64,000 bases of DNA from Chloroflexota bacterium (lineage in GTDB: Bacteria > Chloroflexota > Anaerolineae > Anaerolineales > VGOW01): assembly GCA_016213135.1 (NCBI GenBank), contig JACRBQ010000036.1:25010-89009 (forward strand), written 5' to 3'. Below the pieces are notes generated by a model. It was not told the DNA's origin, did not search any database, and was given only the letters and a program-made list of their open reading frames with translations. The stretch's first letter is position 1. Every line of letters starts with the position of its first letter. Shown piece after piece: positions 9,772-58,185 of the stretch. The position numbers and the translations under genes are program-made.

Positions 9772-10479
9772 CTACCCAAACGCCGCTCGAAATTCCCGCA
9801 CCGCCTTCGGCCCGTTGCGTTCCAGTCCTTTGTAAAACTTTGCCTGATCTTGAATACGGAAGTCGAGACGCTCGACAAGAAACGGAGCCAGGCGCTCGCC
9901 TGAGCGCCGCCGCTCAAGCACATTCAGGAAATACTCGATGGCGTTTTCGACGCTATGCACGTCTGTCCAGTCGGCCTTGTAAACTGGCACGCCGGATTGG
10001 GTGAAAATCCAACTCATGTTGGGCATGGAGCCGTAGGCGCGGTGGCATGCGCCGTCCAGCGCATCCACTAGAATTGGGCGCGTCACGCCGACGCCCAGCG
10101 TGTCACGCAGGTCACGGGCGTGTTTGAATTTTTGCGCCATTGAAGTCAGGTGCGGATAGTGCTCGCCGGGATGGGCTTCGTGCGTGTAGAGGAATATCGA
10201 GCCGACGCCGCGATCCGCATATCGTTCCGCCAGCGCATTCATGGATGGCGCCGCCATCCCGCAATACGGTCAGGTGAAACTGCCAAACTCGATGATGGTG
10301 TAGGCGTGCTGTGACCAAATGGCGCTGAGCTGCGTCTCGCGCTCGTTCAAATGCCACAGCGGAAAATCGGGCGCGGGTTTCCCCAGCGGCGGACTGGACT
10401 CAAAGCGTAGCCACGGCTCGAACTTGGCCGGGATGAATTCGTCGTAGTTGTAGCGCGCAAGCAAATCGGAATCGGTCAT
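9772..10479 (-). CDS. Iodothyronine-deiodinase-family (thioredoxin-fold) selenoprotein; in-frame UGA at 10270-10272
   Basis: Track ORFs 10270-10536 and 9772-10257 are in one frame, separated only by TGA. Read-through gives IIEFGSFT-U-PYCG and then IFLYTHEAHPGE, matching the deiodinase FGSxT-U-P and YIEEAH blocks. Start (10479 or 10482) chosen by homology to the paralogue at 43698. Confidence 0.8.
10243..10259 (-). promoter_or_regulatory. Candidate bacterial SECIS stem-loop
   Basis: GGAUGGC-GGC-GCCAUCC (7 bp, or 6 bp with a 5-nt loop) starting 13 nt after the U of UGA. Confidence 0.5.
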
Positions 10480-10486
10480 CATCACC

Positions 10487-11500
10487 TCAAGGGGCATAGA
10501 ACTCTGAGTCGGGATAGAAATCCTTCCAAGCCCCATCGTAGGAACTCAAACTAGGGACGGGTTGCAGGGACTCGCCTTTGAGCGGCCCGGCGGTTGCCAA
10601 TCCGCGCACCGGGTTCCATGTTGAACCCGTCTCTTCGTCAACCAACACATCTCCATCAGCGCGAAAAGAAAGCGTACGCCCGGCGGCCTGCCTCACGTAG
10701 GCATGGAACGACTCGCCTGAGACCCACAGGACGACAGGCGCATCGCCAAGCGCGTCATTGATTACCCCTGCCGTTTCGGCGCCCGTATAGTAATACGCTT
10801 TGGCCTGCCCGGCCAGCACCAGGCCAACAACGAAATCCCGGCTGAACTCCTGCCGTCTGCTTCCCAACCGGTCCACATCGTTGACCATTACCAGCGTGTC
10901 GGGATACTCTGCCTTCCAATTGGCCCAAGTCGTCAACTGCGAGGGGAGTAAATTGAGTTGCACCCCTTTGAGCGGCCCGATGATGGCCCGGCCCCAGGGC
11001 TGTGACCAGATCGAGCGCGTCTCATGGTCATACCAGGTCATGGCGTTCATAAACAGCGCCCCCCCATTCCCAAACGTGTTGGGCACGCCATCAATGCGCC
11101 GGTCGTGCACGAGACCGGTGTAGCAAATCGGTCACCAGGTGACGAGGATGGGAATGCCCGCCAGTTCGTCGTCCACCATTTCACGGAAGCGCAAGACGGT
11201 GACCGGATAGGCTTTGGCCTCGCCGTCGAGGGCGATGCCCATCACCAGCTCGTCGTCGAGCAGGGGTGCATCGGCTGCGCTGGCAAACTGCGGGTCGTAG
11301 ACCGGCGGAATGCCGTCGAAGGGGATCAATTGTGGAAATGCGTATTCGTTCGTGTCGGTCACGCGAACATTTGTGGCGACGGGCGAGGCCGGTAATGGGG
11401 TCCCAACCGACACGGGGAACTCAGGCGTGGCCGCAGGAGTCGGCGCGGCGCAAGCCGAGAGCAGAATAACGAACACCAGAAGGAATTTTCGCTTCACCAT
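10487..11500 (-). CDS. DUF3179-family lipoprotein, selenocysteine-containing; in-frame UGA at 11132-11134
   Basis: Track ORFs 11132-11500 and 10487-11110 share a frame. Read-through gives IPILVTW-U-PICYTGLVHDRRIDG...HETRSIWSQ, where Cys homologues carry VT(Y/F)CPLC. Lipobox LLSAC at the N-terminus. Confidence 0.75.
11099..11118 (-). promoter_or_regulatory. Candidate bacterial SECIS stem-loop
   Basis: CCGGUC-UCGUGCAC-GACCGG (6 bp, 8-nt loop containing GU) starting 16 nt after the U of UGA. Confidence 0.45.
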
Positions 11501-11675
11501 TTAGCCTGCCATCTTATAGACGCGGCAACCCGCCAGATCCTTACGCCTGCCCTGGTAAGATTTCCGCCGCCCGGCGCGTCCACAGCATATGCGACTCATT
11601 CATCGCCTCCTTCTTCTGCGGTACAGCATTCCTGCCAGCTTCGTTCTGAACTCTGGCCCGGAGCCGAATGGCCTG

Positions 11676-12455: not shown

Positions 12456-12772
12456 ACGGCGCTGCCAGCAGACGCGGCCGATGTGGGCGCGCGCAAAACC
12501 CGCAACAGCGCCTCGAACTCCTCGCGGCAGTCGTGGCACATGTCCAGATGTTTCTGGACGAGCGGCATGAGCCGGGCGGTGTCCTCGCCGCGCAGAACGG
12601 CCTCGGCAAACTCGTCGAGCAGACGGTGAACATCGTCGCAAGTGTATTCCACCTCGTCCGTCATCTCGATCTGCCGGGCCATTTTGAGAACGGCCTCGGG
12701 CGCAAGCGGCATCGGCCGAGCGCGGTTGCCGGGCCGTATCCAACGTTTAATCGTCTCAAGCCAATGAAGCAT
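12452..12772 (-). CDS. Anti-sigma factor, zf-HC2 type
   Basis: HLDMCHDCREEFEALLRVL (HxxxCxxC). Lies immediately downstream of the ECF sigma gene. Confidence 0.7.
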   Translation of the reverse strand: MLHWLETIKRWIRPGNRARPMPLAPEAVLKMARQIEMTDEVEYTCDDVHRLLDEFAEAVLRGEDTARLMPLVQKHLDMCHDCREEFEALLRVLRAPTSAASAGSAV

Positions 12773-13677: not shown

Positions 13678-15390
13678 ATGAACAATCCCAAGAAGCATGA
13701 CGTTGCCATCATCGGCTCCGGCATGGGCGGCTCCACGCTGGCCGCGGTGCTGGCCCGGCACGGGCTGTCGGTGATTGTGTTCGAAGGCGGTACCCACCCG
13801 CGCTTCACCATCGGCGAGTCGATGATTCTCGAAACCTCGGAAGCGATGCGGGCGCTGGCCGAGTTCTACGATGTGCCGGAACTGGCCTACTACAGTTCGG
13901 AAAACTTCTACCCTTATATTGGCACCTCGCACGGCGTGAAGCGCCACTTTAGTTTTGTCCATCATACGGCTGGGCAAAAGGTGGCCGTGAACAAAAGCCT
14001 GCAAGCCGTCATCCCCAAACTACCGTACGGGCATGAGATTCACATTCAACGGCAGGATTCCGATTACTTCCTCACTTCCGTCGCCATCTCGTACGGCGCG
14101 ACGGTATTGCAAAACACGCTCATTCAAGACATCAACGTTCATCCTGACGGCGTAGACGTGATCACCCACAAGGGCCAGACGCACCACGCCTCATACATCG
14201 TTGACGCGGGCGGGATGAAATCTTTGCTCGCCAACAAGTTCAACTGGCGGCATCGCGATTGCCTCTCGCACTCGCGCACCCTCTTCACCCACATGGTGGA
14301 CGTGCCCTGTTTCAACAACGTTGGCCCGGCGCGGCAGGCATTCGGCCATCCCTACCCGCTCTCCGAGGGCACCCTGCACCATATCTTCAAGGGCGGCTGG
14401 CTGTGGATAATTCCGTTCAACAACCATCCCGGCGCCACCAACCCGCTGTGCAGTGTGGGCCTGCAACTCGACCCGCGCCTTTACCCGCAGCGCAACGACC
14501 TGACGCCCGAAGAGGAGTTCTACAACTTCATCCGGCAGTTCCCGGATATGGCGGCTCACCTGAAAGATGCGCGCCCGGTGCGTGACTGGATGAGGATTGA
14601 CCGCCTGCAATACTCGGCCACGCACATCGTGGGCGACCGTTTTGCCCTGCTGGCCCATGCCGCCGGTTTCATTGACCCGCTATATTCGAAGGGTCTGTAT
14701 GTCACTCATATCAGCATTTTCTTGATGGCCGACCTGTTGCTCAAAGCCAAACAGACCGGCGACTACTCGGCGCAAGCCTTTGCCCCGCTGGAGACGATGA
14801 CGCTCAACTACATCAAAATGCACGACCGGCTGGTGGCGAGTTCCTTCAAAACCTGGAGCCACTACAAACTCTGGCAGGTCTATTCGGTGCTGTGGCTGTT
14901 GGGGGCGTATCTGGAGTATCTGCGCCTGATCACCAATCGCTACCGCTCTAAAACTCGCGCCGAGTACCTCGCCTTCCTGCGACCGCACCAATTGGTGGGG
15001 GGCGGCTTCGACCGTTTCTTTGAAATTCAAGAGAAGATTGATGCGCTCATGGACCGGGTCAACCCGGACGACGAAGCCGACGTGGATCGCACGGTGGCCG
15101 AGATTCGCGCTTGCTTTGACTCGTTCCCGTGGCTCCCCATCGTCTTCCGCGAACTCTTGCAAGGCAAGAACCATTTGCCCGACAACAAACTGCGCCTGAG
15201 CCTGCTCAAACCGGGTAATGGTTTCCTCGGTAATGGCGTTTATTACCAGCATTTCTTTGGTGGCGTGCCGCTGTTGGAATTAGGGCGGCGGGCGTTGGCC
15301 GACCAACTGCGCTACTCCCGACCGGCCATTGAGTGGCAACGGCGCACCCGCGCCCGCCTGGCGCAACAAACCCAAGTGACTCATGTTTGA
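13678..15390 (+). CDS. FAD-dependent oxidoreductase of the flavin-dependent halogenase family
   Basis: GxGxxG ([11 protein letters not shown]), PRFTIGES, and the WxWxIP signature (GGWLWIIPF). Confidence 0.6.
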
Positions 15391-16003
15391 CGACCCACTG
15401 CGCCGGGCCAAAGACCGCTGGGGGGAACCCCTGGCCGTGCGGTTGGGACGTATTCCGCCCAACGCCGCCACTCTGACCGCTTTCGGGCTAGGGGTCATTG
15501 CTGTGACGCTCGCTGCCCAGGGCGCTTATCTCTGGGCGCTGGGCTTCTGGTCACTCAATCGCCTGATTGATGCTTTCGACGGCCTGCTGGCGCGGATGCA
15601 GAATCAACAAAGCGACTTCGGCGGCTACCTCGATATTTTGCTGGACTTTGCGATCTATGCGGCTCTGCCGATTGGACTGGTAGTGAGCGCTCCCTCAGAA
15701 ACGCGATACTTCGCACTGGCATTCTTGTTGGGGGCCTTCTACGTCAACGGCGCGTCGTGGATGTATCTGGCCGCGATTTTTGAGAAGCGCAGCTCCCGGA
15801 CAGCGCACTCCGCCACCGCGCCCCGGAACATGACTACCGTTATCATGCCGTCGGGCCTGGTTGGCGCAGTAGAAACGTTTATTGCTTATTGTGCATTCTT
15901 GTTGTGGCCGGAAGCGCTGGAATGGCTATATCTTGGCTTTGGGGCGATGGTGTTGTTGACAACTAGCCAGCGACTTGTCTGGGCTTGGCGCGCTTTACGT
16001 TAA
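15383..16003 (+). CDS. CDP-alcohol phosphatidyltransferase family membrane protein
   Basis: [23 protein letters not shown] fits DGx2ARx8Gx3Dx3D. Multi-TM. Overlaps the previous gene by 8 nt. Confidence 0.8.
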
Positions 16004-16030
16004 AAGACTTCAAAAAGGATTTTTCCCATC

Positions 16031-16582
16031 ATGCCAACCCTCAAAACCGGACAACCCGCTCCCCTTTTCACCTTGCAAACGATTGAAGGCGAGCAAATCT
16101 CGCTGAGCGACGTGGTGAAGAGCGGCAATCAGGCTCTGTTGGTCTTTTTGCGCCATCTTGGCTGACTGCCCTGCCGGGAACGTGCCGCACAGTTGTGCGC
16201 GCGCCAGAACGAATTCAAACAACTCAATACCCGCGCGCTGATTATCTCGTTTGGAACTCTACCCGCTCTTCAGGCGTGGATGCGCGACACATGCAATTCC
16301 TTCGATGTCCTGCTCGACCGCGAACGGAGTGTCTATCAAGCCTACCAACTCGACCGTTCGCGCTGGCGGTCGTGGAGTCCAAGAATGATTTGGACGTATG
16401 CCAAACTGCTGGCCGCCGGGCGCAAATGGATTCCCAAGGATGAGGGCGCCGACACCTCTCAACTGGGCGGCGATTTCATCATCGACTCGAATGGCATTCT
16501 GCGGCTGGCCTATCGCAGTGAGGACCCGGCTGACCGCCCACCAGTGAATGACTTGCTGGCTATCTTAAATCGCCTGCGCTGA
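16031..16582 (+). CDS. Peroxiredoxin-like (AhpC/TSA_2, PRXL2/SelU-type) selenoprotein; in-frame UGA at 16163-16165
   Basis: ATG 16031 opens MPTLKTGQPAPLFTLQT...LLVFLRHLG-U-LPCRE, in frame with track ORF 16193-16582 (...QLGGDFIIDSNGILRLAYRSEDPADRPP). Confidence 0.8.
16181..16203 (+). promoter_or_regulatory. Candidate bacterial SECIS stem-loop
   Basis: CGUG(C)C-GCAC-AGUU-GUGC-G-CGCG: stem with one bulged C and apical loop AGUU. The core is conserved, with a compensatory pair change, in the paralogue at 57781-57798. Confidence 0.55.
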
Positions 16583-16593
16583 TCCGCCCGCGC

Positions 16594-19971: not shown

Positions 19972-20019
19972 GTAGCGTAGTCCCTTGTGCGCGCTCAACG
20001 CACACAAGGACTTAAGCGT
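19972..20019. repeat. REP-like imperfect palindromic element (family copy 1)
   Basis: CGTAGCGTAGTCCCTTGTGCGCG-CTCAA-CGCACACAAGGACTTAAGCG. The arms match the elements at 21256-21302 and 45410-45458. Confidence 0.5.
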
Positions 20020-20147: not shown

Positions 20148-20603
20148 ATGAAGATGTTGATTCACGATTTGGCGAAGCAAACCGGTGTTCCGGCTAAAAC
20201 CATCCGGTATTACGAGTCCATCAAGTTGTTGCCGCGCCCGGAACGGGCGGCGAACAATTACCGCCAATACGCGCCGGCCGAGGCCGAACGCTTGCGCTTC
20301 ATCGCCAGCGCGCGCAGCTTGGGCTTCTCGCTCGATGACGTGGCCGAAATCCTCGCCGCGCGTGATAAGGGACTGGCCCCCTGCCAGCGCGTGCTCGATG
20401 CCGTTGATCGGCGACTGACGGACGTTGACCGGCGCATTGCCGATTTGCTGACTCTGCGCGACTCTCTCCGGCAACTGCGGAGCGAGGGGGCCATTCTCCC
20501 CCGCGATGACGTGCAGGGGGAGCATTGCGTGTGTTACTTGCTCAAAGCGTATCGCGATAGCGGGCACGTCGCTATTCAGAGAGGAGAGTTATTCGATGAC
20601 TGA
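20148..20603 (+). CDS. merR: MerR-family metal-responsive transcriptional regulator
   Basis: HTH (IHDLAKQTGVPAKTIRYYESIKLLP), coiled-coil, and Cys residues (LAPCQ, HCVCY) in metal-binding positions. Confidence 0.8.
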   Translation: MKMLIHDLAKQTGVPAKTIRYYESIKLLPRPERAANNYRQYAPAEAERLRFIASARSLGFSLDDVAEILAARDKGLAPCQRVLDAVDRRLTDVDRRIADLLTLRDSLRQLRSEGAILPRDDVQGEHCVCYLLKAYRDSGHVAIQRGELFDD

Positions 20604-21255: not shown

Positions 21256-21302
21256 TGTAGCCTAGCCTCTTGTGGGCGGCGGGGACAAGCCCCTATGCTA
21301 CG
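21256..21302. repeat. REP-like imperfect palindromic element (family copy 2)
   Basis: TGTAGCCTAGCCTCTTGTG-GGCGGCGGGG-ACAAGCCCCTATGCTACG. Confidence 0.45.
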
Positions 21303-21322: not shown

Positions 21323-21565
21323 ATGCCTACCACTCTACAAGAAGACAAAGTTCTCGACTGCTCCGGAATGCTTTGCCCCGTTCCGGTGATTAGTACATCC
21401 AAGGCGATCAAGGAAATGCAGGTCGGGCAGGTGTTGAAGATGATTTCCACCGATCCCGGCGCGCCTCCCGATATGGTGGCCTGGGCCCGGCAGACCGGCA
21501 ACGAATTGCTGGACTCGCATCAAGAAGGCAAGGTTTACATTTTCTATTTCCGCCGTCTGAAGTAG
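21323..21565 (+). CDS. TusA/SirA-like sulfurtransferase
   Basis: CPxP motif (DCSGMLCPVPV). About 80 aa. AAGGAG Shine-Dalgarno 7 nt upstream of ATG 21323. Confidence 0.8.
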   Translation: MPTTLQEDKVLDCSGMLCPVPVISTSKAIKEMQVGQVLKMISTDPGAPPDMVAWARQTGNELLDSHQEGKVYIFYFRRLK

Positions 21566-22178: not shown

Positions 22179-22467
22179 CCAGCGCAATCCGGTTCAGGCG
22201 TGTGCCCAAACGCTTGCCAAACAAGTGTTGCTGGCCGCCGATCCAGCACGGCTGAAAGAAGCCCCAGTTCACTAGTGGCGAATCTTGCAGGCGATGGGGA
22301 TCGCGACTCGTGAGGCTGTCGATCTCGCCTGGGTCGATCTGAGCATAGACGCTCTAGTCGGGTACGGCCCAACCGGCAATTCGCGCGGCGGAGCCGCTAA
22401 ATGAATCTATCGAGCGCATGGCAGTGGTCGCCCGACCCTGGCGCTCGACGCACCGTCCGGCCTCGCC

Positions 22468-22689
22468 TGCCAACGTGTGCTCGATGCCGTTGATCGGCGA
22501 CTGGCGGACGTTGATCGCCGCATTGCCGATTTGCTAGCCCTGCGCGATTCCCTTCGGCAACTGCAGAGCGAGGGAGCCATTCTCCCCCGCGATGACGTGC
22601 AGGGGGAGCATTGTGTGTGTTACTTGCTCAAAGCGTATCGCGACACCGGACAGGTCACTATTCAGGAAGGAGAATTTTTCGATGACTGA
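22468..22689 (+). pseudogene. 5'-truncated duplicate of the merR 3' end
   Basis: 222 nt align without gaps to 20382-20603 (about 23 mismatches counted by eye), including the identical ATGACTGA junction with the downstream gene. No HTH-coding part is present. Confidence 0.8.
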
Positions 22690-36869: not shown

Positions 36870-36998
36870 ATGATTGAGAAGGTCTATTCAAAAGCCGGCC
36901 GCTCCTGCCGAGTGACCTTTGAACTTCCGCCTGAAGTAATATGCGAGACAGCCTGCCTCTGCGGCGAATTCAATGAACAGAAACAAGGTTTTCAATGA
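36870..36998 (+). pseudogene. Truncated CBM48/E-set-like gene remnant
   Basis: MIEKVYSKAGRSCRVTFELPPEVICETACLCGEFNE parallels MIKKIYSETEPSWLVTFELPPEVNAQTACLCGEFDEW (57335 gene) but stops after 42 aa. Its stop overlaps the next ATG. Confidence 0.5.
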
Positions 36999-37880: not shown

Positions 37881-38582
37881 ATGAGCATTCCTGCGCTCAC
37901 CACGGCCCAAATGGCCGAAGTGGATCGGCTGATGATTGAAGAATATGGCATCCTGCTAATCCAAATGATGGAAAACGCCGGGCGCAACCTGGCCGAGCTG
38001 GCGCGGCGGATGCTGGACGGAAAATTGGCTGGCCGCAAAATTGTGGCCCTGTGTGGCGCGGGCAACAACGGTGGCGGCGGGATGGTGGCAGCCCGCCACC
38101 TGCACAACTGGGGCGCAGATGTCCAAGTAAAGCTGATTGCCGATCCTGACAAACTCACAAACGTCCCTGCGCGCCAGTGGCGAATTTTGCAAACGATGGG
38201 GATCGTCGTAGAATATACTCTCGATCTCGCCCGGGCCGATCTGATCCTCGACGCTATCATTGGGTACGGCCTGACCGGGAACCCGCGCGGCGAAGCCGCT
38301 GAATGGATCGAGCGAGCGAATAGGAGTGGCCGCCCGATCCTGGCGCTCGACGCGCCATCCGGCCTTGACACAACGAGCGGCCTCGCCGGCCAGCCGTGCA
38401 TTGGCGCGACGGCAACGTTGACATTGGCCCTACCCAAGTCTGGGCTGATCGCGCCGCAAGCCCAACCGTTCGTCGGCGATCTCTATCTGGCCGACATCGG
38501 CGTGCCGCCCGAACTGTATCGGCGGATCGGACTCGAAGTGGGAACGTTATTTGCCGAAGACACGATTATCAGGATCAATTAA
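37881..38582 (+). CDS. NAD(P)H-hydrate epimerase (YjeF N-terminal domain)
   Basis: LMENAGRNLA, CGAGNNGGGGMVAARHL, DAIIGYGL, LALDAPSGL. Confidence 0.85.
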   Translation: MSIPALTTAQMAEVDRLMIEEYGILLIQMMENAGRNLAELARRMLDGKLAGRKIVALCGAGNNGGGGMVAARHLHNWGADVQVKLIADPDKLTNVPARQWRILQTMGIVVEYTLDLARADLILDAIIGYGLTGNPRGEAAEWIERANRSGRPILALDAPSGLDTTSGLAGQPCIGATATLTLALPKSGLIAPQAQPFVGDLYLADIGVPPELYRRIGLEVGTLFAEDTIIRIN

Positions 38583-42193: not shown

Positions 42194-42964
42194 ATGACAA
42201 CCCACCTGATCAACACCGAGGCTCTCGAGCGCAGTTACAACACAGTCCGCCAAAAATGGGACCCGCACTTTGAATGGGTCGTCAACGAGTCCGCGCCGTG
42301 GGCGCCGCTTGAGCGGCCTCTCGCGCAAACCGCGCTGGCCCTCGTCGGCACGTGCGGCGCATATCGGCGCGGCGCAGACTGCCCCTTCGACGCGGCGAAT
42401 TATTACGGCGATCCATCTTTCAAGGAAATTCCGCGCGACACTGAGCCGGGCGCGCTGGAATTTGCCCACACGCATTACGACCACGCGCACGTCGCGCAAG
42501 ACCCGAATGTCGGTTTCCCTCTCGGCCTGTTGCGCATTTTGGAAGCCGAAGGCGTCATCGGACGGTTGGTGGATCCGGCGATCAGCTTCAGCGGCTTCCT
42601 ACCGCAGACGCGGCAGTTGCTGACGGACACCGCCCCCGCCGCCGCCAAGCGGCTGCTGGAAGCGGGCGCCCAGTCGGCGCTGCTTGTGCCGTGTTGACCG
42701 ATCTGCCAGCAGTCCGTGGGACTGATTGCGCGTGTTTTAGAAGAGGCCGGGATCGCGACCGTGTGCATTGTGATGCGCCGCGAAGTGGCGCAGAACGTCA
42801 AGCCGCCGCGCACGCTCTTCGTCAAGTTTCCGATGGGCGCGCCGCTCGGCCCGGCGGGTGAGGCCGAGACGCAGCGCGGCGTGATTCTGGAAGCCCTGTC
42901 GGCGCTGGCGAGCGCAACCGAGCCGGGGACGATTGTGGACTCGGCGCGAGCATGGAAACGCTAA
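42194..42964 (+). CDS. Small GrdB-family (glycine/sarcosine/betaine/D-proline reductase selenoprotein B-like) selenoprotein; in-frame UGA at 42695-42697
   Basis: Track ORFs 42194-42697 and 42716-42964 share a frame. HTHYDHAHVAQDPNVGFPLGLLRILEAEGVIGRL and ALLVPC-U-PICQQSVGLIARVLEEAGIATV parallel the GrdB blocks around its ST-U-GTC selenocysteine. Confidence 0.75.
42710..42724 (+). promoter_or_regulatory. Candidate bacterial SECIS stem-loop
   Basis: CAGUCC-GUG-GGACUG (6 bp, or 5 bp with loop CGUGG) starting 15 nt after the U of UGA. Confidence 0.45.
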
Positions 42965-42991: not shown

Positions 42992-43698
42992 CTACCCAAA
43001 CGCCGCGCGAAATTCCCGCACGGCTTTAGCGCCGTTGCGTTCCAGCCCCTTGTAAAACGCAGTTTGGTCCTGAATGCGAAAGTCAAGCCGCTCGACCCGA
43101 AACGGGGTGAGGCGTTCGCCGGAGCGCCGGCGCTCGCTGACGTCCAGGAAATACTCAAGGGCATTCTGAATACTGCGCGTATCTGTCCAGTCGGCCTTGT
43201 AGACCGGTACGCCTGACTGCGCGAAAATCCAACTCATGTTGGGCATGGAACCATACGCCCGGTGACACGCGCCGTCCAGTGCGTCTACCAGAATCGGGCG
43301 CATGACGCCCAGCACCTCGCGCAAGTCACGCGCGTGCCGGAACTTCTGCTCCATCGAAGTCAGACGCGGGTAGTTCTCGCCCGGGTGGGCTTCGTGAGTA
43401 TACAGAAAGATTGAGCCGACGCCCTCCGATGCGAATTGCCCGGCCGTGGCGTCCATGGATGGCGCCGCCACGCTTGCGCGCAATACGGTCAAGTGAAACT
43501 GCCAAACTCGACAATCAAGTACCGGTGGCGCAACCAGATTTCACTCAGCCGGGTCTCTTCACCATTCAAATGCCGCAAAGGGAAGTCGGGCGCGGGCTGG
43601 CCGAGCGGCGGGCCGGCCTCAAAACGCATCCACGGCTCAAACTTGGCCGGGACGAATTCGTCGTAGTTATATCGGGAAAGAAGATCGTCGTGGGTCAT
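42992..43698 (-). pseudogene. Second iodothyronine-deiodinase-family selenoprotein gene; UGA at 43489-43491, frameshifted just after the UPYC motif
   Basis: The N-terminal part ends LIVEFGSFT-U-PYC. Homology to the 9772 gene (AAPSMDA...IFLYTHEAHPGE) resumes in another frame: 11 nt lie between TGC and GCGGCGCCATCC here versus 6 nt in the intact copy. Confidence 0.7.
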
Positions 43699-45409: not shown

Positions 45410-45458
45410 GTAGTTTAGCCCCTTGTGCGCGTGCGCCGCCCACAAGGGGCTAGGCTAC
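45410..45458. repeat. REP-like palindromic element (family copy 3, best preserved)
   Basis: GTAGTTTAGCCCCTTGTG-CGCGTGCGCCGCC-CACAAGGGGCTAGGCTAC. Confidence 0.55.
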
Positions 45459-49564: not shown

Positions 49565-49741
49565 TTACGCGGCTGAGGCGCTTGAGGCGCGCAAGATCCG
49601 CATGAGCGCCTCAAACTCCTCGCGGCAGTCCGGGCACATGTCGAGATGTTTCTGGACCAGCGGCATCAGTTTGGCGGCGTCCTCGCCGCGTCGAACGGCT
49701 TCGGCAAATTGGTCGAGCAGACGGTGAACGTCGTCGCAGGA
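49565..49741 (-). pseudogene. 5'-truncated copy of the zf-HC2 anti-sigma gene
   Basis: SCDDVHRLLDQFAEAVRRGEDAAKLMPLVQKHLDMCPDCREEFEALMRIL closely parallels 12452-12772 at protein and nucleotide level. It has no N-terminal part and is out of frame with the upstream PAS ORF. Confidence 0.5.
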
Positions 49742-50148: not shown

Positions 50149-52116
50149 TCATCGCTTCGCTGAATCAGGGGCAGTCAGGGATTCGGCGCGCAGCCGCGCC
50201 CATTCCTCTTCCGGCACTTGCAGGAAGGCCTCGACTGCGCGCGGGTCGAATTGTGTCCCCCACCCGGCTTCGATCTCTGCGCGGGCAACGGCGTAGGGCC
50301 GGCCGGCGCGATACGGGCGGTCGGAGGTGATGGCGTCGAAGGTGTCGGCCACGGGGAAAATGCGCGCACCCGGCGGGATGGCCTCGCCCGCCAACCCCCG
50401 CGGGTATCCTGCGCCATCCCAGCGTTCCTGGTGGGCGCAGACGATTTCGCGCGCACCGTCGAGGAACGGGATACCCTGCAAGATGCGCTCGCCCCACTCG
50501 GGGTGGCAACGCATGATAGCCCGTTCAGCGTCCGTGAGCGGGCCGGGTTTGAGCAGGATGGCGTCCGGCACGCCGATCTTGCCGATGTCGTGCAGGAGCG
50601 CGCCGCGCCGGATCGTGGCCAGATCTTCCTCGGAGATGTTCATCCGGCGAGCCAGGGCCAGGGTGTAAGCAACGACACGGCGCGAATGACCCTCGGTTTC
50701 CTTGTCCCGCGCATCGAGCGCGGCGGCCAGCGCGTCGAGCGTGTGATCGTACGAAGTCGCCAGTTGCCGGGCCTGCTGTTGTTCGGATTCCAGCAACGCC
50801 TCTCGCTCCCGTTGCAAGTTCTTCAATTCCGTGATGTCCCGGTTGACGCCGACATAAGCCGCCGGCCGGCCGCGCTCATCTTTAACGGTAGAAACCGTGA
50901 GGAAGGAATCCCACGTCGTCCCGTTCTTGCGCCGGTTGGCGATCTCTCCGGCCCAATATCCCTGTGTGAGGATCTGCTCCCACATCTGCCGATAGAATGC
51001 CGGCGTGCTGTGCGGCGACTTGATCAGGCCGGGCTTCTGTCCCAGCGCCTCGGCGCGTCGAAAGCCGGTGAGCCGCTCGAAGGCCGGGTTGACATCCAAA
51101 ATGCGCGACTGCAGGTCGGTGATCATCACCGCATCCACCGTGCTCTCGAAAACATCCTTGTAGAGTCGCAACTCTTCAAAGAACATGGCGCGCTGCAGCG
51201 CAGTGCCGGCCTGGTTGGCAATCAGCCCCAACAAGCGCACGTCGTGGTCGTCAAAGGGGCCGGGCGCAGCGCGGTTGACTTGCAGAGCGCCGAGTACCCG
51301 CTCGCCGGCCAGCATGGGCACGCTTAATGCGGAGCGCAAGCCCAACTCGAGTAACTCGACAGGCACACGGAAGCGTGTTTCGCTTGCCATGTCGGCCGTC
51401 TGCACCGGCGTGCGTTGGGCAAAAGCGTAGCCGGCGGCGGTTTCCTCGCCCACTTCGAACGAGCGCGCCGCCGAGGCCTGCCCGGCTCCCGGAACGCCGG
51501 CCGGGGCGTTCCAGCCGATAGAGGCCAGCGCCTCGAGCCGCCGGCCGGCCGTGTCCGGCAGCAACAAGCCGCCGGCGTCGGCCTTCAAAGAAGCCAGCGC
51601 CGCTTCGAGCGTGTGCCGGGCGATCTCGGCCAGATCGAGAGTCTCCAACAAGCGACTCGACAGCTGCGCCATCGCGGCGAGTTCCTCAACGTGGTGGGCC
51701 TCGCGCTGCGCCCGCTCCGTGATGTCCCGAATGACGCTCACGACCAGCACGCCGTCCGCGGTTTCCAGAGGACTCAAGCTGCATTCTATCGGGAATTCAC
51801 TGCCATCCTTGCGCCGGGCCACGGGCAGCCGGGCGGACCCCATGGGCCGGACAGCGGGCGCGGCATGGTAGTCTGCGCGCTGCCCCACGTGGGCTGTGTG
51901 CAGCCGATCGGGAAGCAAGACCTCGACGAATTGGCCGAGCAACTCCTCCCGGCGGTAGCCGAACAGCCTCTCCGCCTGGGCGTTGACGAGCGCAATGCGA
52001 CCATCGCGGTCGGCGACCACCACGGCGTCCGGCGCGGATTCCAGGAGTTTCGGAGAGAGCGCCTGGTAAGTTTCGGTGTGTGGCGAGTGTGATTGCTTCA
52101 CGTGATCAGCTCCCAA
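50149..52116 (-). CDS. PAS-GAF-PAS-HD-GYP multidomain signalling protein
   Basis: Two PAS blocks (DRDGRIALVNAQAERLFGY, DLQSRILDVNPAFERLTGF), a GAF region, and HD-GYP (LLHDIGKIGVP, HQERWDGAGYPRGL). Confidence 0.88.
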   Translation of the reverse strand: MGADHVKQSHSPHTETYQALSPKLLESAPDAVVVADRDGRIALVNAQAERLFGYRREELLGQFVEVLLPDRLHTAHVGQRADYHAAPAVRPMGSARLPVARRKDGSEFPIECSLSPLETADGVLVVSVIRDITERAQREAHHVEELAAMAQLSSRLLETLDLAEIARHTLEAALASLKADAGGLLLPDTAGRRLEALASIGWNAPAGVPGAGQASAARSFEVGEETAAGYAFAQRTPVQTADMASETRFRVPVELLELGLRSALSVPMLAGERVLGALQVNRAAPGPFDDHDVRLLGLIANQAGTALQRAMFFEELRLYKDVFESTVDAVMITDLQSRILDVNPAFERLTGFRRAEALGQKPGLIKSPHSTPAFYRQMWEQILTQGYWAGEIANRRKNGTTWDSFLTVSTVKDERGRPAAYVGVNRDITELKNLQREREALLESEQQQARQLATSYDHTLDALAAALDARDKETEGHSRRVVAYTLALARRMNISEEDLATIRRGALLHDIGKIGVPDAILLKPGPLTDAERAIMRCHPEWGERILQGIPFLDGAREIVCAHQERWDGAGYPRGLAGEAIPPGARIFPVADTFDAITSDRPYRAGRPYAVARAEIEAGWGTQFDPRAVEAFLQVPEEEWARLRAESLTAPDSAKR

Positions 52117-53087
52117 TCATGCGGCAGGAAGTGAAGAGGCAAGATGAAAGTGAGCGTTTCGGGCAGGAAGCATTCGCGGTCGTCACAGGCCTGGTAGCGC
52201 AGCCGGGCGGCCACCTGAATGTTCCCCTCGCCGTCCCTGCTTCCACCCAGGCACTGAGCCCGGATCGCCAGTCGGCCGGTGTAGGCGGGTAGTCTCTCAC
52301 CCAGGGCTTCGACTTCCACCCCCTCAGGCTCCGGGTAAACAACCTGACTCAGCGAGAGCGCCTCGTTTTCATCCAGGGTCAGTTCCACCGGAATATGCCC
52401 CTCAGGCAGTGGACGGCCATAAATGTGCAAGCCGTCTGCCAGTGAGATATCAACTGTCAGCGTCGTCAACTGCCCCTTGCGAATCGTCGGCGAGGCGAAG
52501 TACGCCCGAGCCGCGAGGTGAGGCGTGGTAACGACCTGCGCCTCCCCTCGTTCCAGGTCCGCTACCCGGAAACTTCCCTGCAGCAGGTCATTGACCGACT
52601 CGCGGATGCGATGGTTGGCGATGAAACTCTTGTCAAACACACGCCCATCCCGGCCTACGGCATACACCCCCGGGTAAGGAACGCCGTACCACTCATGATC
52701 TTCGGGTATGTTCGTGTTCAGAATGCCGAAGGCTCGGATTACGTGACTCCCCTCGTCTGAGAGAAGAGGGTAGGTGATCTCGTATTTCTGTGCGAACTTC
52801 CGCAGGACAGCCTGCGAGTCCGGGCTGATCGCAAAAGCCCGGATACCGTTGCGGTTAAGCGTCTCCAGATTGCGTTGCAGTTCGACCAACTGCGATTTGC
52901 AATAGCCTCACCAGGAGGCGCTGCGGTAAAAGATGATCAGCGCCCGATCCGCGCCTCGAGTAGCCGAGAACCGGATTAATCTCCCGAACTGATCCGGTAA
53001 GGTAAAGTCCGGCGCCAGTTCGCCGATGGCCGGCCCCGTTGGAAAGTTCTCGCCAGTCGGATCTTCCTGGATCGATTTTGATGCCAT
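52098..53087 (-). CDS. Peroxiredoxin/AhpC-TSA domain fused to a DsbD-N-like domain, selenocysteine-containing; in-frame UGA at 52908-52910
   Basis: ATG 53087 (Shine-Dalgarno GAAAGGAAGA) opens MASKS...ELAPDFTLPDQFG...LIIFYRSASW-U-GYCKSQ, in frame with track ORF 52098-52889. The C-terminus carries RLRYQACDDRECFLP (DsbD-alpha-type). Confidence 0.8.
52870..52902 (-). promoter_or_regulatory. Candidate bacterial SECIS stem-loop
   Basis: UUGC-AAAUC-GCAGUU-GGUCG-AACUGC-AAC-GCAA: two-tier stem with apical loop GGUCG, starting 8 nt after the U of UGA. Confidence 0.55.
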
Positions 53088-55278: not shown

Positions 55279-55282
55279 CCTC

Positions 55283-57304
55283 ATGCCACGTGACTTGCCT
55301 CTTGGAAACGGCAGCCTGCTGGTTGCCTTTGACGGAAACTATCAAATTCGCGAGCTGTACTGGCCGCACGTCGGCCAGGAGAATCACTCGCTCGGCCACC
55401 CATTTCGGATGGGCGTCTGGGTGGACGGCCGGTTCCACTGGCTGGACGATAGCCGGTGGGAACGCGATCTGCGCTATGCCCACGAAACGCTAGTCAGCGA
55501 GGTCGCCCTGAAGCATCCCGCTTTGAATCTGACACTGGCGGTCTCGGATGCGGTGGACTTTCACGAGAATCTGTTGGTTCGCCGATTCGACATTTCCAAC
55601 CCGGCGGATCACGCTCGCGAAGTGCGTCTGTTCTTCCATCACGATTTTCACATCTCCGGCAACGAGGTGGGCGACACCGCCTACTATGAACCGGAGCGGC
55701 GGGCGGTGTGCCATTACAAAGGCGCGCGCTGGTTCCTGGCAAACGGCGCGGTCGCGCTCGCCGTGGGCGACGCCGGCCCCGGCTGGACGCCCGCGCCGGA
55801 CACGGCCCCGGGACTCGTTGTCGGCGTGCACCAGTGGGCCTGTGGCATTAAGGAAATCCACAACCTTCAGGGCACCTGGCGCGACGCCGAGGACGGGCAG
55901 CTTTCGGGCAACGCCGTGGCCCACGGCTCGGTGGATTCGTGCGTTGGCTTCGGAGTCAACATCCCGGCCGGCCAGACCCGCACGATCTACTACTGGCTGG
56001 CCGTCGGCCCGGACTTCGAATCCGTCACCCGCCTCAACCGGATGGCGCGGCAACGCGGGCCGGAGAGTTTCCTCCGCCGCACGCACGATTACTGGCACTT
56101 GTGGCTAAACGCCCATCGGCCCGATCTGAACGGCCTGCCGCATGGGGTATGCGACCAATATCTCACCAGCCTGCTGATCATCCGCACTCAGGTGGACAAC
56201 GGCGGCGCGATCCTGGCCGCCAACGACAGCGATATTTCCTCCAACGTGCGCGACACGTACAGTTATGCCTGGCCGCGCGATGGCGCGCTCGTCGCCCGCG
56301 CCCTCGACCTGGCCGGCTACTCTGACCTGGCCCGCGCCTTCTACCAGTTCTGCGCCTGCGCGCTCTCCCGCGAGGGCTACCTGTTGCACAAATACAACCC
56401 CGACGGCACGCTGGCCTCGAGCTGGCACCCGTGGTATCGCGATGGCCGCAAAGACGTGCCGATTCAGGAAGATGAAACTGCGCTCGTGCTCTGGGCGCTC
56501 TGGGAGCACTTCGCCCGTTACGGCGACATCGAGTTCACCAAACCGCTCTACCGGGCGCTCATCGCTCCGGCCGCCGATTTTCTCGCCCGCTATCGCGATC
56601 CTGAAACCGGCCTGCCTCTGCCGAGTTATGACCTGTGGGAAGAACGATACGGCGTGCTGGGCTGGACGACGGCGGCGGTGTGGGCCGGGCTGACGGCGGC
56701 GGCCAATTTCGCGGAGGCGTTCGGGGAAACCGATCGGGCGGGACGCTATCGGCAGGCGGCCGGTGAGCTGAAAGCGGGCCTCGAAGCGCATCTCTGGCGG
56801 CCGGAGTTGAATCGTTTTGCGCGCATGATCTACCGCGCCGCTGATGGGCGATGGGAGGTGGACGGCACGCTGGACGCCTCGCTCGTTGGACTGTGGCAGT
56901 TTGGCATGTACCCGCCGGATCATCCGAAGATCGTTGCCACCATGCAGGCCATCCGCGAACGGCTGTGGGTGAAGACCGAGGTGGGCGGCGTAGCGCGCTA
57001 CGAGAACGACTACTACCATCAGATCAGCCAGGACATCGGCAACGTGCCCGGCAACCCCTGGTTCATCTGTACGCTGTGGCTGGCGGAGTGGCACGCGGCC
57101 ACCGCGCGAACCGCCGAGGATCTGAAACAATCGCTGGCGCTGATCGAGTGGGCCGTACAGCGGGCCTTGCCCAGCGGCGTGCTGGCCGAGCAAGTGCATC
57201 CGTATTCCAACGCGCCGCTTTCCGTTAGCCCGCTCACCTGGAGCCATGCGGGGTTTGTGACCACCGTGCAGGCCTATCTGCGTGCCGGACAGCGCCTGGC
57301 CTGA
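55283..57304 (+). CDS. Glycoside hydrolase family 15 (glucoamylase/glucodextranase-related)
   Basis: Length and blocks match: DTYSYAWPRDGALVARAL, EGYLLHKYNPDG, LPLPSYDLWEERYG, NPWFICTLWLAEW, LAEQVHP. Confidence 0.85.
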   Translation: MPRDLPLGNGSLLVAFDGNYQIRELYWPHVGQENHSLGHPFRMGVWVDGRFHWLDDSRWERDLRYAHETLVSEVALKHPALNLTLAVSDAVDFHENLLVRRFDISNPADHAREVRLFFHHDFHISGNEVGDTAYYEPERRAVCHYKGARWFLANGAVALAVGDAGPGWTPAPDTAPGLVVGVHQWACGIKEIHNLQGTWRDAEDGQLSGNAVAHGSVDSCVGFGVNIPAGQTRTIYYWLAVGPDFESVTRLNRMARQRGPESFLRRTHDYWHLWLNAHRPDLNGLPHGVCDQYLTSLLIIRTQVDNGGAILAANDSDISSNVRDTYSYAWPRDGALVARALDLAGYSDLARAFYQFCACALSREGYLLHKYNPDGTLASSWHPWYRDGRKDVPIQEDETALVLWALWEHFARYGDIEFTKPLYRALIAPAADFLARYRDPETGLPLPSYDLWEERYGVLGWTTAAVWAGLTAAANFAEAFGETDRAGRYRQAAGELKAGLEAHLWRPELNRFARMIYRAADGRWEVDGTLDASLVGLWQFGMYPPDHPKIVATMQAIRERLWVKTEVGGVARYENDYYHQISQDIGNVPGNPWFICTLWLAEWHAATARTAEDLKQSLALIEWAVQRALPSGVLAEQVHPYSNAPLSVSPLTWSHAGFVTTVQAYLRAGQRLA

Positions 57305-57334
57305 CTTTGCGCTGATGACAATGGAGAAAACCTC

Positions 57335-57631
57335 ATGATCAAGAAAATCTATTCCGAAACTGAGCCTTCGTGGCTGGTGACGTTCGAACTGCCGCCCGAG
57401 GTGAACGCGCAGACGGCCTGTCTGTGCGGAGAGTTCGACGAGTGGGACGAGACATCTCATCCAATGGAGCGCCGCGAGGACGGGAGTTTCACGCTGACCC
57501 TCTCGCTCCAGCCGGAGCGCCGTTATCGCTTCCGTTATTTGCTGGACGGCGAGCGATGGGAGAACGACTGGGCCGCCGACGCCTACGAGCCCAATCCGTT
57601 TGGGAGCGAAGATTCTGTGGTGCAATTGTGA
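57335..57631 (+). CDS. Small CBM48/E-set domain protein (paralogue of 54985-55278)
   Basis: VTFELPPEV...ACLCGEFDEW...FTLTLSLQPERRYRFRYLLDGERWENDWAADAY. Confidence 0.7.
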   Translation: MIKKIYSETEPSWLVTFELPPEVNAQTACLCGEFDEWDETSHPMERREDGSFTLTLSLQPERRYRFRYLLDGERWENDWAADAYEPNPFGSEDSVVQL

Positions 57632-58185
57632 CGAGGGCGCAACCGGGCGACCCGGCTCCCGACGTCACGCTGATGACGGTCGAAGGGCAGGCGGTGTCGT
57701 TGGCCAAAGCGTGGGGCGACGGGCAGAACGTTCTGCTGGTGTTCCTGCGACACCTGGGTTGACTGCCCTGCCGCGAGCATGTGGCACAGTTGTGCCGCCA
57801 CGTCGCCGAATTGGCCGCCTTGAATACAAAAGTAGTCGTGGTGTCGTTTGGTTCTTCGCCTTTGGGACGAGCCTGGCTCGATGAGACGCGGGAGCCTTTC
57901 ACGCTGTGGCTCGATCCAGAACGCGCCGCCTACCGCGCCTATGGCCTGGAACATTCGCTGCTTCGCTCGTGGGCGCCGCGTGTGTGGTGGCGTTATGCTC
58001 AATTGATGCTCACCGGTCGCAAATGGCGCGGCATTCAAGGTGACAGCGGCCAATTGGGCGGCGACTTCATCGTAGACAGGAACGGTGTCATCCATCTGGC
58101 TTACCGTAGTCACGATCCTACCGGCCGGCCGCCGGTGAGCCGAGTGCTGGATACTCTCAGGCGCCTCAATGGTGCCAGCAGATGA
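57628..58185 (+). CDS. Peroxiredoxin-like (AhpC/TSA_2, PRXL2/SelU-type) selenoprotein, second copy; in-frame UGA at 57760-57762
   Basis: GTG 57628 (GTGA overlap with the upstream stop) opens VTRAQPGDPAPDVTLMTVEG...LLVFLRHLG-U-LPCREH, in frame with track ORF 57781-58185. Its stop overlaps the glk ATG. Confidence 0.8.
57781..57798 (+). promoter_or_regulatory. Candidate bacterial SECIS stem-loop
   Basis: GUGGCAC-AGUU-GUGCCGC (7 bp including one G-U pair). Same AGUU loop and GCAC/GUGC core as at 16186-16199. Confidence 0.55.

Follow-up and report, generated by a model that had tools for sequence, protein, structure and literature searches.

Every protein family described in this work is among the selenoprotein families with UxxC motifs listed in PMC9312934 and PMC13188914, where DUF3179 (PF11376) appears with the motif UxxC/T. 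The Chloroflexi are known to carry tRNA-Sec and selenoproteins (PMC5389517, PMC13582414). Three selenoproteins were attributed to the phylum in 2006 (PMC1794560), and a 2026 review does not mention Chloroflexota where it lists selenoprotein-enriched groups (PMC13188914). The term "selenoprotein-rich" has been applied to organisms with at least six selenoproteins (PMC5029168). With regard to the RNA element, a G in the first two loop positions was universal in one paper's set of bacterial SECIS elements (PMC13582414).

The window analysed here, a 64-kb stretch of DNA from a Chloroflexota bacterium of Anaerolineae/Promineifilaceae type, whose closest public relative is the MAG GCA_016235375.1 (98% identity for the gene-F protein), contains seven in-frame TGAs, with 53-168 open codons upstream and 42-269 downstream. 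The coordinates and frames given for them in the original prediction were all borne out, and at 7/7 sites the UGA occupies the first position of a UxxC motif within a recognisable redox family (T-U-PYC in A and E, W-U-PIC in B, G-U-LPC in C and G, C-U-PIC in D, and W-U-GYC in F). Altogether, the data presented below indicate that the window very probably holds six functional selenoprotein genes plus one recently inactivated copy, with UGA read as Sec through the bacterial SelB/SECIS route. All these families are already catalogued as selenoproteins, and there is no new family, mechanism or genetic-code feature; the interest of the locus lies in its gene density and in the routine splitting of such genes into fragments by databases.

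Inside the window, motif and hairpin carry limited weight. Among 224 TGAs with at least 40 open codons on each side, 17 show UxxC, the 10 outside the seven sites doing so by chance. The predicted stem-loops were found after each UGA (stems of 6-9 bp that begin 10-18 nt past the UGA and close on a loop with G and/or U), but they are a weak criterion on their own in GC-rich DNA: depending on the site, a fraction of 0.10-0.66 of the in-window background was at least as stable, and pooled stability was modestly above background (p ~0.02). The significance of the sites therefore rests on homology and cross-species data. At six sites the coding signal was the best of the six frames on both sides of the UGA, in agreement with the predicted continuity of homology; the site at 43489 changes frame, as had been stated. 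An unbiased frame-consistency scan found no additional Sec sites in the window.

Seven in-frame UGAs in one window might also reflect a reassigned code with UGA as a sense codon (Trp or Gly, codes 4 and 25). This is contradicted by stop usage in the 62 called genes (TGA in about 26, TAA in 23, TAG in 13), which include the ordinary genes ending at 2108-2110 and 5731-5733 cited in the original prediction; as more ordinary genes end in TGA than in either of the other stops, the code has not been reassigned. Furthermore, all in-frame TGAs located by the scan belong to one of three classes: redox sites aligned with Cys, true ends of genes, and a single dead fragment. Reassignment thus has a negligible probability, and reading of specific UGAs as Sec is retained.

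The first two genes lie next to each other:

9772-10482, minus strand: gene A, deiodinase-like thioredoxin-fold selenoprotein of ~236 aa, motif EFGSFT-U-PYC (from open frame, Pfam and orthologues)
10479 and 10497, minus strand: alternative starts of gene A
10270-10272, minus strand: Sec-UGA of gene A (TGA in orthologues, Cys in a homologue)
10243-10259, minus strand: SECIS-type hairpin of A, GGAUGGC-GGC-GCCAUCC, 10 nt after the UGA
10487-11500, minus strand: gene B, DUF3179 selenoprotein of 337 aa, motif VTW-U-PIC (from Pfam and orthologues)
11132-11134, minus strand: Sec-UGA of gene B (TGA in orthologues, TGC in a paralogue)
11099-11118, minus strand: SECIS-type hairpin of B, CCGGUC-UCGUGCAC-GACCGG, 13 nt after the UGA

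The junction sequence places the start of gene A 4-7 nt beyond the stop of gene B, and the six closest relatives likewise have a DUF3179 gene in a pair with one for a deiodinase-like selenoprotein. The product of gene A matched the Pfam models Redoxin (33.2 bits), AhpC-TSA (31.2 bits) and T4_deiodinase (PF00837; 26.3 bits vs a cutoff of 27), reached 47.4 bits against a cutoff of 250 for NF038285 (deiodinase_rel), and had the type III deiodinase 4TR3 as its sole PDB match (E = 0.0017). Although the deiodinase-family cutoffs are not reached, the likeness is real (FGSxTUP, 4TR3), and "deiodinase-like" is a fair label, short of membership in the family. The TGA was kept in 6/6 orthologues at the DNA level, and the homologue P0241 carries Cys at the Sec site (FGSFT-C-PYC). 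Gene B scored 215.6 bits with DUF3179 (cutoff 27), and its TGA was kept in 30/30 Chloroflexota orthologues (42-70% identity), with a single Cys (TGC) paralogue, L026:11433. The N-terminus of its product shows a putative lipoprotein-type signal (MVKRKFLLVFVILLSAC), suggesting that the protein may be exported as a lipoprotein.

Two paralogues related to SelL were located on the plus strand:

16031-16582, plus strand: gene C, SelL-related / PRXL2-type (AhpC-TSA_2) selenoprotein of 183 aa, motif HLG-U-LPC (from profile matches)
16163-16165, plus strand: Sec-UGA of gene C (TGA in relatives)
16182-16204, plus strand: SECIS-type hairpin of C, GUGCCGCAC-AGUU-GUGCG(C)GCGC, core GCAC-AGUU-GUGC encoded by A-Q-L-C
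57628-58185, plus strand: gene G, second SelL-related / PRXL2-type selenoprotein, 185 aa (NF040769; paralogue of C)
57760-57762, plus strand: Sec-UGA of gene G (TGA in relatives)
57781-57798, plus strand: SECIS-type hairpin of G, GUGGCAC-AGUU-GUGCCGC, register as in C, one pair changed from C-G to G-C

Scores for C and G were 153.3 and 166.7 bits with NF040769 (cutoff 120), 58.7 and 55 bits with PF13911 (cutoff 27), and 71 and 67 bits with AhpC-TSA, respectively. The TGA was kept in the DNA of 20/20 metagenomic relatives and in L001, and the U of gene C aligns with the first CxxC Cys of the solved structures 3KCM and ResA. Gene C closes a gene run (13678-16582). Gene G lies in a run that, as read from translations, would code for carbohydrate and pentose-phosphate enzymes. 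A CBM48 gene ends within the GTGA that also holds the GTG start of G, and the stop of G in turn shares an ATGA with the ATG of the next gene at 58182, a probable glucokinase.

Gene F is a fusion:

52098-53087, minus strand: gene F, Prx/TlpA-like (AhpC-TSA) + DsbD_N fusion selenoprotein of 329 aa, motif SASW-U-GYC
52908-52910, minus strand: Sec-UGA of gene F (TGA in orthologues)
52877-52893, minus strand: SECIS-type hairpin of F, GCAGUU-GGUCG-AACUGC, 14 nt after the UGA

Gene F has a good RBS (AAGGAAG), and the gene after it starts with a GTG that overlaps the stop of F (GTGA). Translational coupling of both G and F to their neighbours by such overlaps indicates that their ORF ends are real gene ends. 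AhpC-TSA (PF00578) and DsbD_N (PF11412) were matched with 97.4 bits (cutoff 26) and 39.8 bits (cutoff 25), and no signal peptide was evident in the gene F product. The TGA was kept in 5/5 orthologues examined as DNA, the most distant of which, with 52% identity, is from a Poribacteria MAG. Full-length relatives (at most 43% identity) mostly carry W-C-PYC, with U aligned to that C.

The remaining intact gene is a short GrdB/PrdB-like one:

42194-42964, plus strand: gene D, short stand-alone GrdB/PrdB-like selenoprotein of 256 aa, motif LLVPC-U-PIC (Pfam GRDB, PrdB)
42695-42697, plus strand: Sec-UGA of gene D (TGA in relatives)
42710-42724, plus strand: SECIS-type hairpin of D, CAGUCC-GUG-GGACUG (extended form 42705-42731)

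The match of gene D to Pfam GRDB (29.5 bits, cutoff 22) stops four residues before U; that to TIGR04483 PrdB spans U with 111 bits, below its cutoff of 300, and TIGR01918 gave 38.8 bits, also below cutoff (65.45). The TGA was kept in 5/5 relatives examined as DNA (L057, L058, L059, L022 and L043), and distant homologues show C or S at the Sec site (PAC/PNC-PxCHQ). Gene D ends a tightly spaced plus-strand run that starts at 36995 and includes a Grx-TrxR fusion. Among the neighbours checked, which were identified in part from translations (TauE, YjeF_N, the Grx-TrxR fusion, a cyclase and an F5/8-C protein), no partner gene PrdA, GrdA, GrdC, GrdD or GrdE was found; the syntenic relative L057 has matching YjeF_N, Grx-TrxR and DUF5939/guanylate-cyclase genes. 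Gene D belongs to a separate, stand-alone subfamily that is frequent in Chloroflexota metagenomes, and its product may depend on the Grx-TrxR system encoded next to it.

In every orthologue examined as DNA (30 for B, 6 for A, 20 for C/G, 5 for F and 5 for D), TGA was present at the same codon, and protein conservation extended over both sides of it. Standard gene callers report exactly the halves that would result if the UGAs were genuine stops, either in decaying pseudogenes or between half-proteins expressed separately, and copy E is really broken; on the contrary, retention of the TGA in all these relatives across 42-98% identity, together with purifying selection on the downstream part, argues for a continuous product. 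Moreover, with separate halves the UxxC active site would be divided between two proteins, no conserved start or RBS precedes the downstream halves, and the hairpins are conserved at synonymous sites, making genuine stops very unlikely. As a source of the TGAs, sequencing or assembly errors, conceivable in what is probably a metagenome assembly, have a very small probability given the identical TGAs in dozens of independent assemblies; for the frameshift in E, a local assembly fault is conceivable. These data strongly favour Sec-encoding UGAs in the six intact genes.

The situation of the seventh site is different:

42992-43698, minus strand: pseudogene E, second deiodinase-like copy, 76-79% DNA identity to A
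43698-43489 and 43456-42992, minus strand: N-terminal and C-terminal parts of E, in different frames
43489-43491, minus strand: former Sec-UGA of E, motif T-U-PYC
43471-43479, minus strand: lesion in E, GCGCAAGCG vs GGGA in relatives, net +5 nt (from alignments to A and L060)

The lesion puts the downstream part out of frame and substitutes other sequence for the 5' arm of the hairpin. Values of dN/dS for E vs A were 0.15 and 0.06, and the relative L060, with ~95% DNA identity to E, is intact and in frame. As the 5-nt insertion is absent from so close a relative, copy E appears to have been recently inactivated by a lineage-specific event. The frame shift after the UGA had been correctly recognised in the original prediction, which understated its consequence: E is a dead copy.

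Comparison of the hairpins across relatives, on small covariation samples (5-14 distinct sequences), indicates that they are under selection at the RNA level, with synonymous freeze in B, compensatory change in F, a pair flip in C/G and wobble in A. In B, 88% of cells were paired, vs 4-57% in slid controls, and synonymous codons were frozen from +5 to +11 (GGU 77%, GAC 100%, CGG 90%), whereas codon choice was free elsewhere; the Cys paralogue has lost these hairpin-codon constraints. RNAalifold recovered just 3 bp for this element. Pairing in the F hairpin was 91% (9-49% in slid controls), with double-sided compensatory changes at two pairs, GC to AU and CG to UA. The C/G core was invariant in 16 sequences, pair 24-37 being CG in 10 and GC in 3. 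The A hairpin was fully paired (100%) in seven sequences, its three changes being all wobble-compatible and its rare codons GGG and CCA frozen, and that of D is shared by L057 and L059, and by L058 apart from one mismatch, the rare Gly codon GGA being retained. A G within the first two loop positions is present in A (GGC), C/G (AGUU), D (GUG) and F (GGUCG), whereas the common B loop, UCGUGCAC, has G only at position 3, variant B forms having GUG or GUU. The proposed comparison with Cys orthologues found Cys at the aligned site for A, B, C, D and F. SECIS-directed recoding without a reassigned code, as originally proposed, is hence strongly supported by conserved TGAs, Cys homologues, hairpin selection and TGA stops.

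In the mechanism we propose, the UGA stands in each gene where a CxxC-type redox motif has its N-terminal Cys, and the coding-region hairpin that starts 10-18 nt 3' of it would recruit SelB and Sec-tRNA(Sec) to the ribosome, UGA staying a stop elsewhere. The products would be selenol/thiol-disulfide oxidoreductases, in which U would attack and the downstream Cys would resolve the selenenylsulfide; this catalytic chemistry is predicted from the motifs. Decoding would rely on SelB and tRNA-Sec, a machinery that is inferred: selA, selB, selD and tRNA-Sec (selC) were all absent from the 64-kb window and from 666 kb of related loci. The lack of tRNA-Sec, selA and selD there is also compatible with decoding as another residue, namely Cys through a SelB-dependent tRNA-Cys, or Trp/Cys by near-cognate read-through; in that case the genes would be genuine and full-length, but would not yield selenoproteins. 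There are published cases of SelB-dependent UGA-to-Cys recoding through non-canonical tRNA-Cys (PMC5389517; Vargas-Rodriguez 2018, as cited in PMC13582414), and a conserved UGA with a hairpin fits it equally well. However, the described cases supplement a working Sec system and occur in other phyla, and the families found here are all recognised Sec families with Cys homologues, so that a costly UGA kept just for Cys insertion would bring no evident benefit. A few database relatives have W, L or F at the site, but most of the 120 listed A/E-family matches are truncated at the UGA. Non-Sec decoding is therefore considered improbable, and Sec insertion is kept as the reading of these UGAs.

Six intact genes in 64 kb meet the published threshold for selenoprotein richness (PMC5029168), the count being that of the window only. 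It is possible, though doubtful, that this Anaerolineae-type lineage is genuinely selenoprotein-rich, outside the three phyla generally cited for this (Thermodesulfobacteriota, Clostridia and Synergistota), with thioredoxin-fold/thiol-type oxidoreductases dominant over anaerobic energy enzymes. In this reading the selenoprotein genes tend to cluster, adjoining genes for mercury and arsenic handling and thioredoxin reductase, which would point to a network for redox and metal defence based on selenium. Part of it would be a conserved module of two selenoproteins, a DUF3179 lipoprotein and a deiodinase-like protein.

The expectation that annotation splits these genes was confirmed by the ~78 nearest relatives of F and ~100 close relatives of D with calls truncated at the UGA, as for the A/E matches above. 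Hundreds of database entries in these families are half-proteins cut at the UGA, and this systematic mis-annotation leads functional and pangenome analyses of Chloroflexota to under-count and mislabel such genes. Sec-aware re-annotation of five family types can draw on the alignments made here as evidence.

In comparison with known systems, genes A-D, F and G resemble the E. coli fdhF / bSECIS paradigm, with an in-frame UGA, a coding-region hairpin starting ~10-18 nt downstream and UGA as a stop elsewhere; the hairpins differ from it in being short (6-9 bp) and distinct between families. Gene A shares the FGS-x-T-U-P active-site context with deiodinases (PF00837; PDB 4TR3), a likeness of sequence alone, and departs from them in its UxxC motif and its ~70-residue C-terminal extension. 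Vertebrate deiodinases have a U-P-x-F context. Gene B is similar to the listed DUF3179 selenoproteins in its PF11376 match and U-PIC motif, and is set apart by Sec in all 30 sampled Chloroflexota relatives and by the putative lipoprotein-type signal. Genes C and G agree with the SelL-related NF040769 and PRXL2-SelU (PF13911) families, exceeding both cutoffs with UxxC at the thioredoxin-fold active site, whereas the presence of two diverged paralogues in one window, G being embedded in a gene run, distinguishes them from known cases. Gene D has the homologous C-terminal domain of GrdB and PrdB and a U-x-x-C Sec preceded by Cys or Ala, but it has only 256 aa, misses the cutoffs of the specific models and sits behind a Grx-TrxR fusion. 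Finally, the N-terminal domain of gene F corresponds to the Prx-like thiol:disulfide oxidoreductase selenoproteins (PF00578, UxxC), with W-U-GYC replacing W-C-PYC, and unlike the plain Prx-like selenoproteins it is fused to DsbD_N (DsbD alpha) with its own Cys pair (QACDDRECF).

The seven in-frame UGA codons of the original prediction were all placed in frame at the following coordinates by translation of both sides; the frame stays open for 53-168 codons before the UGA and for 42-269 after it (U, Sec at the in-frame UGA).

In-frame TGA codons of the window, with the letter used for each gene
A: 10270-72, minus strand; deiodinase-like, T-U-PYC
B: 11132-34, minus strand; DUF3179, W-U-PIC
C: 16163-65, plus strand; SelL-related/PRXL2-type, G-U-LPC
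D: 42695-97, plus strand; GrdB/PrdB-like, C-U-PIC
E: 43489-91, minus strand; deiodinase-like, broken copy, T-U-PYC
F: 52908-10, minus strand; Prx-like (AhpC-TSA) and DsbD_N fusion, W-U-GYC
G: 57760-62, plus strand; SelL-related/PRXL2-type, G-U-LPC

Searches of the read-through products against Pfam and NCBIfam, with U replaced by C, recovered the proposed families. A matched Redoxin, AhpC-TSA and T4_deiodinase; B matched DUF3179 (E = 1e-63); C and G matched AhpC-TSA and AhpC-TSA_2 and scored above the cutoff for the NCBIfam 'SelL-related redox protein'; D matched Pfam GRDB, with PrdB as its best NCBIfam match; and F matched AhpC-TSA plus DsbD_N. By a codon-usage log-odds score trained on the long ORFs of the window, one and the same frame outscored the other five both before and after the UGA at six sites, and at E the coding signal moved to another frame downstream, in agreement with the predicted continuity of frame at every site except 43489. 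The UGA also occupied the first position of UxxC as proposed, with Cys homologues at the same site in the families compared: Cys aligned with U for B, F and C, and Cys or Ser was found in distant full-length homologues of D.

The motif and the hairpins were then weighed against chance. The 62% GC DNA of the window contains 224 TGAs flanked on either side by 40 or more open codons. UxxC occurs at 17 of these, ten of which are chance occurrences. Folding of the 68 nt downstream of each UGA against shuffled sequences was uninformative (z-scores of -0.9 to +0.7). Of 700 in-frame control positions, 10-66% had a hairpin at least as good as the best local one after the UGA, and pooling of the sites gave a weakly positive result (Mann-Whitney p 0.018). 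A stem-loop does follow each UGA, as had been claimed, but against the background of the window its presence is a weak criterion. Since neither the motif alone nor the hairpins alone go beyond chance, the case must rest on homology and comparison.

For B, a scan with one genome per species yielded 30 orthologous loci, all from Chloroflexota MAGs (Anaerolineae, Promineifilaceae, Dehalococcoidia) at 42-70% identity, and TGA was present at the same codon in all 30, in the context VTW-TGA-P[IL]C; one genome also held a TGC paralogue. The hairpin CCGGUC-N8-GACCGG was paired in 88% of cells, in comparison with 4-57% when the partner was slid, and synonymous codon choice was frozen exactly across it: Gly+6 is GGU in 77%, with other Gly codons there favouring GGC; Asp+10 is GAC in 100%, against roughly 50/50 elsewhere; and Arg+11 is CGG in 90%, the immediately following Arg using six codons. 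The Cys (TGC) paralogue lacks these constraints. RNAalifold returned only 3 bp on the B alignment, because the hairpin register shifts between lineages, and was replaced by the pair counts and synonymous-codon analysis. In one Anaerolineae MAG, two tandem DUF3179 copies lie about 1 kb apart (relatives' locus L005, 10325 and 11321), both with TGA and an identical hairpin. The junction sequence places the start of B at ATG 11500 (minus strand), and the segment 11450-11500 appears, from the lipobox consensus, to encode a lipoprotein-type signal peptide (MVKRKFLLVFVILLSAC) with lipobox LLSAC; the partner A has no signal. B may therefore be an exported, lipid-anchored selenoprotein.

In the window A starts 4-7 nt beyond the stop of B, and orthologues of A lie directly downstream of those of B in the six closest loci. 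In all six of these loci the TGA is followed by the perfect hairpin GGAUGGC-GGC-GCCAUCC, 100% paired, and the only three changes are wobble-compatible. The score of A falls just below the Pfam deiodinase cutoff and far below that of NF038285, and type III deiodinase is its sole relative of solved structure.

For F, the nearest database relatives, about 78 in number, are 250-263-aa calls beginning downstream of the UGA. No full-length relative exceeds 43% identity, and all but one of those aligned have W-C-PYC. At the DNA level TGA was found in five orthologues, down to 52% identity (a Poribacteria MAG), and the hairpin showed two double-sided compensatory pairs and 91% pairing, against 9-49% when slid. 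The protein is 98% identical to its counterpart in the closest relative, NCBI MAG GCA_016235375.1, and the gene has a good RBS and a stop overlapping the GTG of the next gene. Some full-length database relatives of A and F carry another residue at the Sec/Cys position (P0242, P0300 and P0103, Trp; P0243 and P0244, Leu; P0246, Phe), which could be real substitutions or the product of gene calling with a TGA-as-Trp code.

All 20 metagenomic relatives of C and G (57-74% identity) retain TGA. Their hairpin core GCAC-AGUU-GUGC is invariant, with Ala always GCA and Leu always UUG, and among the distinct sequences the pair next to it is C-G ten times and G-C three times. In alignments with thioredoxin-fold oxidoreductases of solved structure, the U of C falls on the first Cys of their CxxC. 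C starts 28 nt after a CDP-alcohol phosphatidyltransferase gene. G overlaps both of its neighbours: its GTG start with the stop before it (GTGA), and its stop with the ATG (ATGA) of a gene at 58182 that we read as a putative glucokinase.

Roughly 100 relatives of D (60-92% identity) are calls of about 163 aa terminating at the UGA, and all five checked as DNA have TGA. The hairpin CAGUCC-GUG-GGACUG is kept in the three closest relatives, one with a single mismatch. The only close full-length relative, the database protein P0121 (66% identity), lacks the seven residues LVPC-U-PI, which looks like a gene-model artefact skipping the UGA rather than a real deletion. D passes Pfam GRDB and fails the PrdB and GrdB-family models. 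No reductase partner genes lie near it in the window, which makes it a stand-alone subfamily.

E is a paralogue of A, the two sharing 76-79% DNA identity. Their dN/dS is 0.15 in the N-terminal part and 0.06 in the C-terminal part, so E must have stayed functional until very late in its history. The sole disruption lies just past the UxxC motif, where relatives have GGGA and the window has GCGCAAGCG. Logan contigs L060 and L061 hold an E-type relative, about 95% identical in DNA, that is intact and in frame, with TGA and hairpin. By this comparison the lesion is lineage-specific: a net gain of 5 nt throws the downstream part out of frame and takes the place of the hairpin's 5′ arm. We consider E a very recent pseudogene, a local assembly fault being less likely. 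Thus, from the seven genes originally claimed, six are intact and one is a dead copy.

Against a reassigned genetic code, the called genes of the window end in TGA more often than in any other stop (about 26, with 23 TAA and 13 TAG), and both examples of UGA-terminated genes in the original prediction were confirmed. Together with the TGA kept across relatives and the selection on hairpins, this upholds SECIS-directed recoding over either a changed code or decaying genes, and ordinary bacterial Sec insertion is the best explanation: a coding-region hairpin 10-18 nt past the UGA would recruit SelB with Sec-tRNA(Sec), and Sec would replace the attacking Cys of a CxxC-type motif. The Sec machinery and the redox chemistry of these proteins we infer. 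In the window, an Rfam scan at gathering threshold gave no match; with ARAGORN, neither the window nor 44 loci yielded a tRNA-Sec; regular expressions for SelD and SelA signature motifs matched nowhere in the window or the 666 kb of DNA from relatives; and Pfam annotation revealed no Sec machinery among 30 neighbours. The trait does exist in the phylum, as Chloroflexi have tRNA-Sec (PMC5389517) and Sec-containing hydrogenases (PMC13582414).

An unbiased frame-consistency scan for TGAs with coding signal in the same frame on both sides recovered A, B, C, D and F; its other matches were two true stops before in-frame genes, a stop-riddled YjeF_N fragment and an antisense artefact. A simple codon-usage threshold scan gave too much noise and failed to pick up A, C, F and G. 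Two suspects checked by hand, the TusA-like gene at 21323-21565 (normal CPVP Cys) and the zf_CopZ gene (ORF from ATG 20506, ACPECG), encode ordinary Cys proteins. The TGA-ending genes offered no convincing C-terminal Sec. As no site was added, the list is complete for the window.

Pfam annotation of the 30 neighbours revealed a redox and metal theme: an arsenite-oxidase-like Rieske/3Fe-4S/molybdopterin pair with FmdE, a mer cluster (MerR, zf_CopZ, TusA, DsrE-like, MerA, MerE), a second pyridine-nucleotide disulfide reductase, DsbD_TM and a cupredoxin. The arsenite-oxidase-like operon (5730-9741; Rieske small subunit, Rieske_3 (3Fe-4S)/molybdopterin large subunit, then an FmdE-domain protein) adjoins the B-A pair, and translations upstream of it read as two di-haem cytochrome c peroxidase-like genes and a two-component system. 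A run of genes with gaps of 3-16 nt ends in D (TauE, YjeF_N, Grx-TrxR fusion, unknown, cyclase, F5/8-C protein, D). A related contig, L057 (GCA_040961345.1), is syntenic with the window from DUF6789 through D and continues directly with DUF1684, which lies 10 kb further on in the window, so that E, F and several regulators lie in an inserted or rearranged segment. L057 also has, at ~9525-10300, an unannotated 163-aa ORF followed by an in-frame TGA (C-G-V-U) and 98 more open codons, a possible further CxxU selenoprotein absent from the window.

Paralogous duplicates and dead fragments make the window a mosaic. Matching segments are 20380-20603 and 22466-22689, 22316-22463 and 38218-38365, 12489-12640 and 49587-49738, and ~36870-36990 and 57335-57631. 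Among the duplicates and fragments are the C-terminal end of a MerR gene, 90% identical to the full gene; the YjeF_N fragment; a truncated piece of a CBM48-protein gene; a second anti-sigma (zf-HC2-like) gene; and a pair of HD-GYP/LuxR regulators encoded on opposite strands. A putative REP-like or terminator-like intergenic palindrome, (C)CCTTGTG-N12-CACAAGG(G), is perfect at 19984-20008 and 45422-45446 (two copies, 0.29 expected by chance) and degenerate at ~21262-21290. Genes of these families also adjoin each other on unrelated contigs: two genomes have a D-like gene close to DUF3179, and one has a C-like gene beside a D-like one (L022:1217-1909 and 3580-4464; L059:6001-6777 and 7000-8472; L043:3001-3531 and 4181-4765), with TGA in all checked; this recurrent adjacency hints at a functional network.

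These genes are new members of known selenoprotein families using a known decoding mechanism, and nothing in them is categorically new. Published lists of prokaryotic selenoprotein families (PMC9312934, PMC13188914) already include all of them: deiodinase-like PF00837 (UxxC), DUF3179 PF11376 (UxxC/T), Prx-like thiol:disulfide oxidoreductase PF00578 (UxxC), GrdB and PrdB (UxxC), and 'SelL-related redox protein', for which NCBIfam has a curated model. In databases the genes are consistently found split. For one set of bacterial SECIS elements, G is reported in the first or second loop position (PMC13582414); five of the six hairpins have it there, and the common B form has G at loop position 3 only. 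In 2006 three selenoproteins were ascribed to the phylum (PMC1794560), and the selenoprotein-enriched groups named in a 2026 review do not include Chloroflexota (PMC13188914). 'Selenoprotein-rich' has been defined as at least six selenoprotein genes per genome (PMC5029168), a threshold reached without the rest of the genome by the six intact genes of the window, which represent five family types within 48 kb.
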